UHGV virus genome: UHGV-0074612
DNA from: a virus
Strand: one strand, 5' to 3'
Length of the DNA stretch: 17,318 bases
How positions within the stretch are numbered: the stretch's first letter is position 1; every line of letters begins with the position of its first letter. A model generated the notes under the pieces. That model saw only the letters and a list, made by a program, of their open reading frames with translations. It searched no databases and was not told where the DNA came from. Below, piece by piece: positions 3,682-17,268 of the stretch. Made by a program: the position numbers and the translations under genes.

Positions 3682-4352
3682 TGCTCCCCAAATACAAAAC
3701 CAATTTCAGCCAGTGCCTCGTCCATTTTTTCGATGAACTCTGGCACCATTTCGTCAAAACCAGCCATGTATTTTTCATCCCGCTCGACCACGACATAATG
3801 CAGGCCTTCACGCTTCATACGTGGGTCATAGTTGGCAAAGTACCAGGCATCTTTTCGCGTCGCCCACATGCTGAATTGCACCTGGGCCATGTAAGCTGAT
3901 TTTATTGCCTCGAAACCACCGAGCCGGAATTTCATGAAATCCCGGGAGGTAAACGGGCATTTCAGTTCAAGGCCGTTGCCGTCACTGCATAAACCATCGG
4001 GAGAGCAGGCGGTGCGCATACTTTCGTCGCGATAGATGATCGGGGATTCAATAACATTTACGCCGGAAGTGAACTCAAACAGGGTTCTGGCGTCGTTCTC
4101 GTACTGTTTTCCCCAGGCCAGCGCTTTAGCGTTAACTTCCGGAGCCACACCGGTGCAAACCTCAGCCAGCAGGGTGTGGAAGTAGGACATTTTCATGTCA
4201 GGCCACTTCTTTCCTGATCGGGGCTTTGCTATCACGTTGTGAACTTCTGAAGCGGTGATGACGCCGAGCCGTAATTTGTGCCATGCATCATCCCCCTGTT
4301 CGACAGCTCTCACGTCGATCCCGGTACGCTGCAGGATAATGTCCGGTGTCAT
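3672..4352 (-). CDS. exo: Lambda exonuclease (Red alpha)
   Basis: 226-aa [43 protein letters not shown]..., lambda Exo length and sequence as I recall; start overlaps the bet stop. Confidence 0.97.
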
Positions 4353-8121: not shown

Positions 8122-9204
8122 TTAGAACTGGTAAACCATACCTACAGCAACGATATCATCGGTAGCAACGCCAGATGCTTTCGTGAAATCGCTCTTATCA
8201 ATCAGGTTGATTTTGTAGTCAACAAAAGTGGACATATTTTTGTTGAAGTAATAGGTTGCACCTACATCAACATATTCAACCAGGTCCTGATCACCCCAAA
8301 CACCCAAGTCTTTTCCTTTAGAATGCAGGTAAGCAACGGATGGACGCAGGCCGAAGTCGAACTGATATTGTGCAACAGCTTCGAAGTTTTGTGCTTTGTT
8401 GGCAATATGGTTATTACCAAAAACAGTCATGTTCTGGGTTTCAGAATAGGTGGTGGCCAGATAGATGTTGTTCGCATCATATTTCAGACCAGCTGCCCAT
8501 ACTTCAGCATTTTGACCAGAAGCATTCAGACCGTTGTTACCGTAGATAACCTGATTATTAGTGCGATCAGATTTAGCATAGGTTGCACCCACGCCGAATC
8601 CTTCATACTCATAAGTAGTTGAGAAACCGAAACCATCGCCATTAGCTTCAGTTACTTCATTTCGGTCATTTTTGCCCTGATACTGAGCTGCAAAGTTCAG
8701 GCCATCAACCAGACCAAAGAAGTCGTTGTTACGATAAGTTGCAACACCTGTGGTGCGACCAGTCATGAATACATCTGTTTGGGTCCAGGTATCGCCACCG
8801 AATTCTGGCAGAACGTCGGTCCATGCACCGATGTCGTATGCTACACCGTAGTTACGGCCGTAATCGATGGAGCCGTAGTCACCGAATTTCAGGCCAGCGA
8901 AGGCAAGACGGGTTTTATCTTTGGAGGAACCTTGAGATTCAGCGCGGTTGCCTTTGAATTCATATTCCCACTGACCGAAACCAGTCAGTTGATCGTTGAT
9001 TTGGGTTTCACCTTTGAAGCCAAGACGGGCATAAGTAGTATCACCATCATCTGCATCATTAGAGGAGAAGTAGTGCTTAGCATTAACTTTCCCGTACAGA
9101 TCCAGCTTGTTACTGTCTTTATTATAAATTTCAGCTGCCTGAGCAGACATCGCCATCAGTACTGATGCAGCTACAGCAGAAATTGCCACTGTTAATTTTT
9201 TCAT
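8122..9204 (-). CDS. nmpC: OmpC/OmpF-family general porin, prophage-encoded (NmpC/Lc-like)
   Basis: 360-aa ORF with signal peptide [23 protein letters not shown] then AEIYNKD..., C-terminal VGMVYQF ending in Phe; located between Q and the holin on the opposite strand, as nmpC is in DLP12. Confidence 0.93.
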
Positions 9205-12498: not shown

Positions 12499-12909
12499 TT
12501 AGTGCGGAAATATTTGTGTAGTGTTCTGAATGTTCTCAGTAAAGAGTAATGAATTATCAAAGGTATAGTAATACCTTTTGTTTTCGTGGATATTTGTAAT
12601 CCATCTGAAAACCCCTGCTGTAGCAAGATTTTTCCTGTATTCGTAAAATGATAACTCTCCTGATTTGAATCCTTTTAAGGTGGCTTCTATAAGGCATTTA
12701 TTTTTTGAAAATCTTACATTTACAACCTTACCCTGTCCTTTTATTAAAACCGTATTATCGTTTTCAAGAACAAGATGAATATTCTCTGTGGCTAAATAGT
12801 AAATGTAATGTGAGACATTGTGACGTTTTAGTTCAGAATAAAACCAGTGATAGTTTAAATTATTTCGCACTTTATCGAATATTTGTTTAAAAATGGCAAC
12901 CTGAGCCAT
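12499..12909 (-). CDS. YbcV-like (DUF1398-like) protein, 136 aa, AT-rich
   Basis: Track ORF 12499..12924; ATG at 12909 preceded by GAAGGT gives [17 protein letters not shown]..., matching my recollection of DLP12 YbcV and its 136-aa length. Gene is markedly AT-rich relative to its flanks. Confidence 0.75.
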
Positions 12910-12966
12910 TGTAGTACCTTCCATGTGATATGAGGGGGCGTAGTCTGCACGATTATCTAAATTGCT

Positions 12967-13200
12967 TCAATCTGGTCTAACCTGTTTTCTGAGCAATTCA
13001 GTAATGTCACTCTTTTCTTTGTTTGCTTCAGGCGAAACTCTTTTTTCTGAGCACAGTCTCCGGCGGCAGGCTTCAATGACCCAGGCTGAGAAATTCCCGG
13101 ACCCTTTTTGAACAAGAGCGATGTTAATTTGTTCAATCATTTGGTTAGGAAAGCGGATGTTGCGGGTTGTTGTTCTGCGGGTTCTGTTCTTCGTTGACAT
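12967..13200 (-). CDS. YlcI-like small protein with putative ribbon-helix-helix fold (77 aa)
   Basis: Co-directional and 42 bp upstream of the YbcV-like gene; basic N-terminus then RNIRFPNQMIEQINIALVQKGSGNFSAWVIEACRRRL, which reads like a strand-helix-helix unit. Confidence 0.6.
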   Translation of the reverse strand: MSTKNRTRRTTTRNIRFPNQMIEQINIALVQKGSGNFSAWVIEACRRRLCSEKRVSPEANKEKSDITELLRKQVRPD

Positions 13201-13379
13201 GAGGTTGCCCCGTATTCAGTGTCGCTGATTTGTATTGTCTGAAGTTGTTTTTACGTTAAGTTGATGCAGATCAATTAATACGATACCTGCGTCATAATTG
13301 ATTATTTGACGTGGTTTGATGGCGTAGATGCACGTTGTGACATGTAGATGATAATTATTATCATTTTGCGGGTCCTTTC

Positions 13380-13445
13380 CGGCGATCCGACAGGTTACGG
13401 GGCGGAAGGCGCGCGGGTTTTCGCTATTTATGAAAATTTTCCGGG
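13380..13445. other. cos site region with cosN-like 12-mer at 13400-13411
   Basis: GCGATCCGACAGGTTACG + GGGCGGAAGGCG + CGCGGGTTTTCGCTATTTATGAAAATTTTCCGG; both flanks match the lambda right and left ends as I recall, but the 12-mer differs from lambda GGGCGGCGACCT at its last six positions. Confidence 0.65.
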
Positions 13446-13508
13446 GAAAATCATGTCGGTACTTCTCGAACATAACTATTTGTTTTTTCTAATATCGAAT
13501 CCGTAAAA

Positions 13509-13563
13509 GGTCCGACATGAAAACGCCTAAAAAAGTCATTTTCGGGCACTTTCATGTCGGACC
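13509..13563. repeat. Perfect 14-bp inverted repeat with 27-bp A-rich spacer, in cosB position
   Basis: GGTCCGACATGAAA (13509-13522) and TTTCATGTCGGACC (13550-13563); sits between the cosN-like site and the Nu1-like start codon at 13588. Confidence 0.7.
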
Positions 13564-13587
13564 CTGTGTTTGTTGTTAGACTGTTTC

Positions 13588-13704
13588 ATGAAGGTTAATA
13601 AAAAGAAACTTGCCGAAATTTTCAACGTGGATCCGCGAACGATTGAACGCTGGCAGTCTCAGGGACTCCCTTGCGTCTCCGGAGGTGGCAGCGGGCCATC
13701 ATGA
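13588..13704 (+). pseudogene. Terminase small subunit (Nu1/gp1-like), N-terminal 38-codon stub
   Basis: [38 protein letters not shown] then stop; resembles the Nu1 N-terminal DNA-binding segment (lambda MEVNKKQLADIFGASIRTIQNWQEQGMPVLRGGG). The frame ends where terminase A homology begins. Confidence 0.75.
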
Positions 13705-14570
13705 ATGCGATGGGCAGTGACTACATCCGCGAGGTGAATGTGGTGAAGTCTGCCCGTGTTGGTTATTCCAAAATGCTGCTGGGTGTTTATGCCTACTTCA
13801 TAGAGCATAAGCAGCGCAACACCCTTATCTGGTTGCCGACGGATGGTGATGCCGAGAACTTTATGAAAACCCACGTTGAGCCGACTATTCGTGATATTCC
13901 GTCGCTGCTGGCGCTGGCCCCGTGGTATGGCAAAAAGCACCGGGATAACACGCTCACCATGAAGCGTTTCACTAATGGGCGTGGCTTCTGGTGCCTGGGC
14001 GGTAAAGCGGCAAAAAACTACCGTGAAAAGTCGGTGGATGTGGCGGGTTATGATGAACTTGCTGCTTTTGATGATGATATTGAACAGGAAGGCTCTCCGA
14101 CGTTCCTGGGTGACAAGCGTATTGAAGGCTCGGTCTGGCCAAAGTCCATCCGTGGCTCCACGCCCAAAGTGAGAGGCACCTGCCAGATTGAGCGTGCAGC
14201 CAGTGAATCCCCGCATTTTATGCGTTTTCATGTTGCCTGCCCGCACTGCGGGGAGGAGCAGTATCTTAAATTTGGCGACAAAGAGACGCCGTTTGGCCTC
14301 AAATGGACGCCGGATGACCCCTCCAGCGTGTTTTATCTCTGCGAGCATAATGCCTGCGTCATCCGCCAGCAGGAGCTGGACTTTACTGATGCCCGTTATA
14401 TCTGCGAAAAGACCGGGATCTGGACCCGTGATGGCATTCTCTGGTTTTCGTCATCCGGTGAAGAGATTGAGCCGCCGGACAGTGTGACCTTTCACATCTG
14501 GACGGCGTACAGCCCGTTCACCACCTGGGTGCAGATTGTCAAAGACTGGATGAAGACGAAAGGGGATACC
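13689..14570 (+). pseudogene. Terminase large subunit A, internal fragment (about residues 58-350 of lambda gpA)
   Basis: Track ORF 13671..14630; [50 protein letters not shown]... through ...[14 protein letters not shown] is lambda gpA as I recall. It lacks the gpA N-terminus and C-terminal half; the frame then runs into J-derived sequence out of frame. Confidence 0.85.
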
Positions 14571-14571
14571 C

Positions 14572-15883
14572 GAACACGGCACTGGTCGGCGTGCAGGTGG
14601 ACTCGGAGCAGTTCGGCAGCCAGCAGGTGAGCCGTAATTATCATCTGCGCGGGCGCATTCTGCAGGTGCCGTCGAACTATAACCCGCAGACGCGGCAATA
14701 CAGCGGTATCTGGGATGGAACGTTTAAGCCAGCATACAGCAACAACATGGCCTGGTGTCTGTGGGATATGCTGACCCATCCGCGCTACGGCATGGGGAAA
14801 CGTCTTGGTGCAGCAGATGTGGATAAATGGACGCTGTATGTCATCGGCCAGTACTGCGACCAGTTGGTACCGAATGGTTTTGGCGGCACGGAGCCGCGCA
14901 TCACCTGTAATGCCTGGCTGACCACACAGCGTAAGGCGTGGGATGTGCTCAGTGATTTCTGCTCGGCGATGCGCTGTATGCCGGTATGGAACGGGCAGAC
15001 GCTGACGTTCGTGCAGGACCGACCATCAGATAAGGTGTGGACCTATAACCGCAGTAATGTGGTGATGCCGGATGATGGCGCGCCGTTCCGCTACAGCTTC
15101 AGCGCCCTGAAGGACCGCCATAATGCCGTTGAGGTGAACTGGATTGACCCGAACAACGGCTGGGAGACGGCGACAGAGCTTGTTGAAGATACGCAGGCCA
15201 TTGCCCGTTACGGTCGTAATGTCACGAAGATGGATGCCTTTGGCTGTACCAGCCGGGGGCAGGCACACCGCGCCGGGCTGTGGCTGATTAAAACGGAACT
15301 GCTGGAGACGCAGACCGTGGATTTCAGCGTGGGTGCTGAAGGGCTTCGCCATGTACCGGGCGATGTCATTGAAATCTGCGATGATGACTATGCCGGTATC
15401 AGCACCGGTGGTCGCGTGCTGGCGGTGAACAGCCAGACCCGGACGCTGACGCTCGACCGTGAAATCACGCTGCCATCTTCCGGCACCACGCTGATAAGCC
15501 TGGTTGACGGGCAGGGGAGTCCGGTCAGCGTGGAGGTTCAGTCCGTCACCGACGGACTTAAGGTGAAAGTGAACCGGGTTCCTGACGGCGTTGCAGAATA
15601 CAGTGTGTGGGGGCTGAAGTTGCCGACGTTGCGTCAGCGCCTGTTCCGCTGTGTGAGTATCCGTGAGAACGATGACGGCACGTATGCCATCACTGCCGTG
15701 CAGCATGTACCGGAAAAAGAAGCCATCGTGGATAACGGGGCGCACTTTGACGGCGACCAGAGCGGCACGGTGAATGATGTCACGCCGCCAGCGGTGCAGC
15801 ACCTGACTGCCGAAGTCACCGCAGACAGCGGGGAATATCAGGTGCTGGCGCGCTGGGACACGCCGAAGGTGGTGAAGGGGGTG
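14572..15883 (+). pseudogene. Tail tip protein J, internal fragment
   Basis: Track ORF 14591..16687 begins at a GTG inside J-like sequence ([28 protein letters not shown]...). J homology runs to ...[12 protein letters not shown]; the J N-terminal third and C-terminal receptor-binding region are absent. Confidence 0.85.
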
Positions 15884-16687
15884 AAGGCACATTACAGAAA
15901 TGGAGGTCTGTTCTACCGTTCCTCAAGAGATGGCTATGGTTTTGAGGAAGACTGGGCAGAAGTTTATACCTCGAAAAATCTTCCACCAGAAAGCTACCCA
16001 GTCGGCGCACCAATCCCGTGGCCATCAGATACCGTTCCGTCTGGTTATGCCCTGATGCAGGGGCAGACTTTTGACAAATCTGCATACCCGAAACTTGCAG
16101 CCGCTTATCCGTCAGGCGTGATCCCTGATATGCGTGGCTGGACGATTAAGGGCAAACCTGCCAGTGGTCGCGCCGTATTGTCTCAGGAACAGGACGGCAT
16201 TAAATCGCACACCCACAGCGCCAGCGCATCCAGTACGGATTTGGGGACGAAAACCACATCGTCGTTTGATTACGGAACCAAATCCACGAATAACACCGGG
16301 GCGCATACCCATAGTATTAGCGGGACCGCAAATAGTGCCGGCGCGCACCAACACAAGAGTTCCGGTGCATTTGGTGGCACGAACACGAGCATTTTCCCTA
16401 ATGGTTATACCGCGATTTCAAATCCAAGCGCGGGGATTATGAGCACAACAAGCGGTAGTGGTCAGACTCGTAATGCAGGGAAGACATCATCAGATGGTGC
16501 TCATACCCACTCGCTGTCCGGCACTGCTGCAAGCGCAGGCGCACATGCACATACTGTCGGTATTGGTGCTCATACGCACTCCGTTGCGATTGGCTCACAT
16601 GGACACACCATCACCGTTAACGCTGCGGGTAACGCGGAAAACACCGTCAAAAACATCGCATTTAACTATATTGTGAGGCTTGCATAA
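15884..16687 (+). pseudogene. Side tail fibre (Stf-like) C-terminal region, fused in frame to the J fragment
   Basis: ...[45 protein letters not shown]... with repeated Gly/His boxes ([30 protein letters not shown]) and C-terminus [11 protein letters not shown], typical of lambda Stf and T4 gp37-type fibre tips. Confidence 0.8.
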
Positions 16688-17268
16688 TGGCATTCAGAAT
16701 GAGTGAACAAGCACGGACCATAAAAATTTATAATCTGCTGGCCGGAACTAATGAATTTATTGGTGAAGGTGACGCATATATTCCGCCTCATACAGGTCTG
16801 CCAGCAAACAGTACCGATATTGCACCACCAGATATTCCGGCAGGCTTCGTGGCTGTTTTCAACAGTGATGAGGCATCGTGGCATCTCGTTGAAGACCATC
16901 GGGGGAAAACGGTTTATGACGTAGCGTCAGGGGACGAGTTATTTATTTCTGAACTCGGTCCGTTACCGGAAAATGTTACCTGGTTATCGCCGGGAGGGGA
17001 ATATCAGAAGTGGAACGGCACAGCCTGGGTGAAGGATACGGAAGCAGAAAAACTGTTCCGGATCCGGGAGGCGGAAGAAACAAAAAACAGCCTGATGCAG
17101 ATAGCCAGTGAGCATATAGCGCCGCTTCAGGATGCTGTGGATCTGGAGATCGCAACGGAGGAAGAAACCTTGTTGCTGGAAGCCTGGAAAAAGTATCGGG
17201 TGTTGCTGAACCGTGTTGATACATCAACTGCACCGGATATTGAATGGCCAGTAGCACCTATAGGGTAA
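16687..17268 (+). CDS. tfa: Tail fibre assembly protein Tfa
   Basis: 193-aa [42 protein letters not shown]...; start overlaps the stop of the upstream tail-fibre ORF; lambda Tfa-like length and sequence as I recall. Confidence 0.9.

Follow-up and report, generated by a model that had tools for sequence, protein, structure and literature searches.

We analysed a 17,318-nucleotide stretch of UHGV virus genome UHGV-0074612, referred to throughout as the window. In its late region, a cos site is followed by the start of a Nu1-type terminase small-subunit gene, a fragment of the large-subunit gene A, a fusion of J and side-tail-fibre sequences, and an intact tail-fibre assembly gene. The small-subunit gene is a pseudogene stub on the plus strand. 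It forms an open reading frame of 38 codons, from an ATG at 13588-13590 to a TGA at 13702-13704. The first 34 codons are native and the last four, encoding SGPS, are out of frame. The native codons end at the first of three deletion joints that the late region contains.

Joint 1 and the cos site

The first 101 nucleotides of the stub (13588-13688) match the 5' end of the 181-codon small-subunit gene in the E. coli TW10590 prophage (L001) at 101 of 101 positions. The same 101 nucleotides begin the intact 181-codon Nu1-type gene of E. coli prophages and of one sequenced phage. From 13689, the sequence is that of lambda gene A, at 98-99% identity, with its first base at the start of codon 57. By BLAST, 13689-14578 was 99.2% identical to the L001 large-subunit gene and 98.4% identical to lambda nucleotides 879-1768. 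The last 9 nt of this alignment are a mismatched extension; true A homology stops at 14569, equivalent to lambda nucleotide 1759. In an anchored comparison, the window from 13689 onward corresponded to L001 from 3687 onward, where large-subunit codon 57 begins. From the difference in offset, the two homology blocks lie 587 bp apart in this intact relative. Judged from the alignments, a two-block match with a 587-bp gap cannot be a product of chance.

Joint 1 lies between 13688 and 13689, where the window reads GGAGGTGG/CAGCGGGCC (slashes mark breakpoints). The joint is blunt and frame-shifting, and takes Nu1 codon 34 to A codon 57. The missing 587 bp begin with the third base of small-subunit codon 34 and extend through large-subunit codon 56. 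Codon 34 still encodes glycine across the joint. Since 587 is not a multiple of three, the stub reads A-derived DNA in another frame, adds SGPS and stops. A first-pass annotation of this DNA had described a 38-codon Nu1-like stub at 13588-13704, joined to an internal point of A and running into A-derived sequence in a different frame before stopping. All of this was borne out, the coordinates exactly, by the alignments to L001 and lambda. The annotation had drawn the join near 13688-13691, which is the right region, but the exact position is 2 nt to the left. It had also proposed that the rest of Nu1 and the first 57 or so codons of A were gone. The Nu1 part of that statement stands; the loss from A at this joint is exactly 56 codons.

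A 201-bp query centred on joint 1 matched six genomes with both halves at 100% identity, the halves lying 587 bp further apart than in the window. One of the six is TW10590, where a 181-codon gene for the "terminase small subunit" is followed by a 641-codon large-subunit gene. Four intact relatives have the right Nu1 type: TW10590, YJ6, SEC470/H10407 and phage IdasGreatGrand. In these, the left breakpoint reads GGAGGTGG/TAAGGG and the right breakpoint CCCTTT/CAGCGGG. The join in the window reads GGAGGTGG/CAGCGGG and, compared with these relatives, is blunt. Microhomology at the join, proposed as a check in the first-pass annotation, was therefore not found. A 2-bp "CA" was considered and rejected. 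It needs lambda Nu1 as the parent; "CA" is present on the Nu1 side in the lambda-type genes (GGTGGCAAGG) of lambda, DLP12, Qin and strain 203740. Conversely, the four same-type relatives read GGTGGTAAGG, with T at that position.

The cos region upstream of the stub (13400-13587, plus strand) was placed by alignment to lambda, L001, L011 and L012. A variant 12-nt cohesive end, GGGCGGAAGGCG, occupies 13400-13411; the lambda overhang is GGGCGGCGACCT. Three CATGTCGG repeats take the place of the lambda cosB R sites. Two are on the plus strand (13452-13459 and 13553-13560) and one is inverted (13512-13519). By position only, these are putative small-subunit binding sites. A mosaic boundary falls at cosN (13388-13600). 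Rightwards, the DNA is identical to the intact prophage L001, which has a different cos type; left of the cosN nick site it is lambda-type and identical to Qin and strain 203740. The non-lambda cos type is matched by non-lambda sequence in the first ~70 residues of the small subunit. The cosN overhang, the cosB repeats and these residues probably resemble phage 21 gp1. The cos site looks intact and may remain cleavable by a helper phage of matching type. At position 13577, 11 nt upstream of the stub ATG and probably within the ribosome-binding region, T is present in the window, L010 and L017, and G in the other seven carriers described below and in intact L001 (gTAGAc versus gGAGAc). A promoter and terminator scan of 12900-14800 gave counts not above the shuffled expectation.

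Contents of the terminase fragments and the downstream region

The stub matches Pfam Phage_Nu1 (PF07471) at profile positions 1-36 of 164 (E 3.2e-13, 50 bits). This is above the Pfam gathering threshold; a MerR-type HTH is matched weakly. The intact relative matches Phage_Nu1 at positions 1-164. Solved DNA-binding constructs of small subunits comprise 54-56 amino acids (7LWR, 7LXS and 7LW0) or 68 amino acids (1J9I), with one construct of 101. A complete winged helix-turn-helix domain takes ~54-68 residues and the stub has 34 native ones. Hence, the stub is not a self-standing DNA-binding segment. Its native residues end within the Gly-rich loop, roughly half of the way along the domain. The first-pass annotation was right that the Nu1 N-terminus is kept, but what it called the DNA-binding segment is only about half present. 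By alignment, small-subunit residues 35-181 are absent. In lambda terminase, the central and C-terminal region of Nu1 mediates self-assembly and large-subunit binding; this region is missing from the stub.

The large-subunit (gpA) fragment, here A', spans 13689-14569 on the plus strand and holds codons 57 to ~350, as placed by BLAST to lambda and L001. Its longest open frame begins at TTG 13671 or ATG 13701 and ends at 14630, reading as gpA from residue 57 or 61. These frames have 319 or 309 codons and end in a 19-residue out-of-frame tail. A' contains a GpA_ATPase domain (PF05876, positions 19-237 of 247, E 5.5e-46). GpA_nuclease (PF20454) is matched at positions 2-34 of 294 only, below the Pfam cut-off; the intact relative matches at 2-286. 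Hence, A' lacks the nuclease domain, and the portal-binding C-terminus is also absent. The N-terminal 56 residues of gpA are missing too. In lambda terminase, gpA binds gpNu1 through its N-terminus. The stop codon of the stub overlaps the ATG of A codon 61, forming ATGA at 13701-13704. At the overlap, ATCATGAAT is native A sequence (I60-M61-N62). Because ATGA is native sequence read in two frames, we treat the overlap as a by-product of the frame shift.

Joint 2 (14567-14569) is an out-of-frame junction, across a shared TAC, of A codon ~350 with J codon ~217. It was placed in a three-way alignment in which L011 and lambda supplied the A and J parents. In lambda coordinates, ~14.4 kb of head and tail genes are lost here. 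Downstream is an open frame of 698 codons (14591-16687, plus strand), in which J residues 220-650 are fused in frame to the C-terminal ~265 residues of a side tail fibre. The fusion point, at ~15882-15884, is joint 3, where J residue ~650 meets the side-tail-fibre C-terminus. By BLASTP, the J part is 96% identical to lambda J over 436 amino acids, and the fibre part 69% identical to the lambda orf-314/Stf C-terminus. From 15882 onward, the window is 100% identical to stfR-type DNA. The fusion matches Pfam Phage-tail_3, Ig_J and Collar, and its frame is open in all carriers. In L005, it differs from the window by 17 SNPs, mostly in patches, and is still called as a 698-amino-acid gene. The next gene is tfa (16687-17268, plus strand), intact at 193 codons. 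It is 93.7% identical to lambda tfa in nucleotide sequence, and its product in carriers matches Pfam Caudo_TAP. The 3' half of tfa also contains a 221-bit match to Rfam IS009, a candidate small RNA, at 17030-17228.

Microhomology amounts to 0 bp at joint 1, 3 bp at joint 2 and about 3 bp at joint 3. Together, the joints remove the C-terminal part of Nu1, the A nuclease domain, genes W through I, the N- and C-termini of J, lom and the stf N-terminus. Still present are the integrase, the recombination genes, Q, a porin gene, the lysis cassette, the tail-fibre tip and tfa. The integrase is a 356-amino-acid open frame at 50-1120, which we take to be near-identical to lambda Int. The porin gene, of OmpC/NmpC type, is intact at 360 codons (8122-9204, minus strand). 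It lies between the Q antiterminator and the holin genes, the position of nmpC in DLP12. A tRNA scan found none.

Carriers and chromosomal location

IMG/VR contig UViG_3300039332_000035 contains the whole window without mismatch. An index of a public assembly collection lists the exact 309-residue A' product in 50 blocks, and six loci were returned from it. Two are NCBI drafts (GCA_016856385.1 and GCA_008041115.1), three come from ENA gut metagenomes and one is the JGI source contig. Four more carriers were retrieved through the J'-Stf' product; NCBI draft carriers also include GCA_903973615.1 and GCA_948144105.1. A 40-mer across joint 1 was present in all ten sampled carriers (draft genomes and gut metagenomes), on contigs of up to >100 kb with normal E. 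coli flanks. Since all ten share the same joint, it must be inherited rather than an assembly error. We conclude that joint 1 is a real allele of an E. coli lineage.

The undeleted form, with the extra 587 bp, was found in ~540 of 5,426 complete E. coli genomes; by megablast, 534 of them matched 13300-14700 in two pieces with additional DNA in between. A search of phage genomes with the same interval gave the same two-piece pattern. Joint 1 occurred in 0 of the 5,426 complete genomes and had no match among GTDB species representatives or in the metagenome_contigs collection; it was recovered solely by way of the exact-protein index and the source IMG/VR contig. Likewise, no complete E. coli genome spans joint 2, and there was no match in the GTDB representatives or metagenome_contigs. 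Across the collections scanned, joint 2 was always found together with joint 1, and no intermediate was detected that has joint 2 while keeping an undeleted Nu1-A 5' end. The two joints share one distribution. The first-pass annotation had named a short small-subunit gene, conserved in related phages, as the alternative to truncation. No such gene was found: the ~540 complete genomes have the 181-codon gene and none has the short form. The 38-amino-acid product is not on record as a called gene in any carrier.

To the right of tfa, carriers have an AraC-type gene and IS3-family fragments, and then ybhB-bioA-bioB-bioF. In L005 (13570-16900), the interval between tfa and ybhB holds an AraC-family regulator and IS3-family transposase fragments. 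Many E. coli chromosomes match the ybhB-bioABF flank at 100% identity. The position occupied by the element is that of attB lambda, where phage lambda integrates in E. coli. At the same site, strain 203740 has a nearly complete lambdoid sibling prophage, with the attR core GCTTTTTTATACTAA. This core is absent from the carriers. Hence, the right end of the prophage has been eroded as well.

Carriers differ from the window at 0.1-0.3% of sites and the differences are clustered. SNP patches occur at 3741-3897 in exo, 14779-14875 in J' and 16905-17148 in tfa. Such clustering is the pattern that would be expected from recombination with other resident lambdoid prophages. Between 13578 and 14715, there are no differences among the ten carriers. 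Six of the ten were selected by exact identity of the A' protein, and overall divergence is tiny, so this SNP-free interval is not evidence for selection either way. The patch in exo, a YqaJ-type gene, comprises eleven SNPs that separate the window from five other carriers. These include JGI contig Ga0169851_079, from the same sample (3300039332) as the window. The cluster suggests either two co-resident alleles or a recombination patch.

Prophage decay and alternative explanations

We assign a probability of roughly 0.93 to the following interpretation, against which no observation spoke. Joint 1 would be the scar of a deletion within a cryptic ("grounded") lambdoid prophage that is integrated at the lambda attachment site in an E. 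coli lineage, and the fragments would be pseudogene remnants. The ancestor would have had cos, a small-subunit gene of 181 codons and a large-subunit gene of 641 codons, in that order. One illegitimate, homology-independent deletion of 587 bp would have joined small-subunit codon 34 to A codon 57. The small-subunit frame would then pass into wrong-frame A DNA and meet a stop after four codons. One such deletion accounts for the observed anatomy. The small subunit has lost half of its winged helix-turn-helix, together with all parts for self-assembly and gpA binding. The large subunit has lost its N-terminal 56 residues and, by another deletion, the nuclease domain and C-terminus. The fragments were probably carried passively during stepwise loss of morphogenesis genes. 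Given joints 1 and 2 together, we infer that no packaging activity can remain and that neither terminase fragment keeps a packaging function.

The element has the properties of a cryptic prophage. It occupies a phage attachment site on the chromosome and is bounded at one end by a phage integrase. The three joints have cost it genes without which particles cannot be made, and the attR core is missing. It has persisted vertically, the same joints recurring in ten carriers that differ by SNP patches elsewhere. Incomplete prophages preferentially lose terminase and portal genes, and are enriched for tail-fibre and integrase genes (PMC7744054). The loss of terminase here fits this published pattern. 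The element likewise agrees with what has been described in general for "grounded" E. coli prophages (PMC6379469). Events of this sort are well known, and the decay seen here is ordinary.

Two other explanations would make the joint or the stub something else entirely. The window derives from an IMG/VR metagenomic contig, and its junction is missing from complete E. coli genomes, GTDB species representatives and metagenome_contigs. Hence, the contig might be chimeric, an artefact of assembly or binning with a junction found in no real genome. We give this next to no credence, because the identical 40-mer was recovered from ten of ten independently assembled carriers, on contigs of up to >100 kb, and because assemblers do not make chimeras by blunt joins without a shared k-mer. 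It is equally far-fetched that the 38-codon frame is no truncation but a real gene, short by nature, for a small subunit or regulator in a separate phage lineage. Its Phage_Nu1 score above threshold and weak MerR-type match would agree with such a gene. However, beyond codon 34 the DNA is that of gene A, at 98-99% identity and out of frame. Furthermore, all relatives of the same type, including the sequenced phage, have a 181-codon gene, and no carrier records the short product as a gene.

The fragments could instead have been domesticated as an interference module. The stub start and re-initiation at ATGA would then yield a gpA fragment with only the ATPase, which would poison terminase in superinfecting lambdoid phages or benefit the host in some other way. 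The overlap at 13701-13704 is visible in the sequence, and A' keeps an almost complete GpA_ATPase domain in an open frame of 309 codons. Upstream, the gene for the Q antiterminator and those for lysis are intact, which could allow late transcription to extend into A', and 13578-14715 is free of substitutions among the ten carriers. Nevertheless, we regard this as very unlikely. The ATGA is native A sequence that the frame shift happens to expose, and A' ends in an out-of-frame tail of 19 residues supplied by a second random deletion. A lack of SNPs is expected at 0.1-0.3% divergence and was partly imposed by the way that carriers were retrieved. No precedent emerged from literature searches, and no paper was found that treats nohA, cryptic prophages and terminase together. 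The specific proposal that A', without the Nu1-binding N-terminus, the nuclease and the portal-binding end, is a dominant-negative inhibitor of a superinfecting lambdoid terminase is highly improbable. If true, it would amount to a packaging-interference defence encoded by a prophage remnant, and would account for the open frame of A' in every carrier.

Prophage decay of the kind we favour has close parallels in K-12. DLP12 (nohD - aaaD' - tfaD) shares the order DUF1398 (ybcV) - DUF3950 (ylcI) - cos - Nu1 homologue - truncated A. Further right, it also has a tail-fibre assembly gene and then an AraC-type regulator (appY in DLP12). In both, head and tail genes are gone through internal deletion; the A remnant of DLP12 is annotated as a pseudogene. 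However, the DLP12 Nu1 homologue is full length (181 codons) and A codons 1-103 are kept, whereas in the window Nu1 is cut to 34 codons and A codons 57-350 are kept. DLP12 is integrated at argU (PMC6379469) and the present element at attB lambda. In Qin (nohA - J' - stfQ' - tfaQ), the layout begins with ydfO (DUF1398), ynfO and the small-subunit gene; immediately after these come fragments of J and of a tail fibre, and then tfa. Alignment indicates that, in Qin too, a deletion joint inside the small-subunit gene gives an out-of-frame tail. That joint is at the 3' end of the gene (residue ~169) and leads straight into J without an A fragment; the joint in the window is at codon 34 and leads into A. 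Hence, the element shares the neighbourhood and decay style of DLP12 and Qin, but its breakpoints and chromosomal site differ.

Likeness to lambda itself is seen in the 98.4% DNA identity of the A segment, in the membership of the stub in Phage_Nu1, and in the conserved cos-Nu1-A order. The differences are the cosN overhang, the cosB repeats and the first ~70 Nu1 residues, which are of a non-lambda specificity type; lambda Nu1 and this Nu1 type are 58% identical overall. Compared with lambda, and with intact prophages of the same type (TW10590, phage IdasGreatGrand), the terminase genes in the window are probably non-functional fragments.

For annotation, the 38-codon and 309/319-codon open frames should be recorded as terminase pseudogene fragments. 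The contig should be labelled as a defective E. coli prophage at attB lambda and not as a viral genome. The element offers a clean and datable case of a prophage decaying step by step. Since the joints occur in 0 of 5,426 complete E. coli genomes, the joint sequences could serve as lineage markers.
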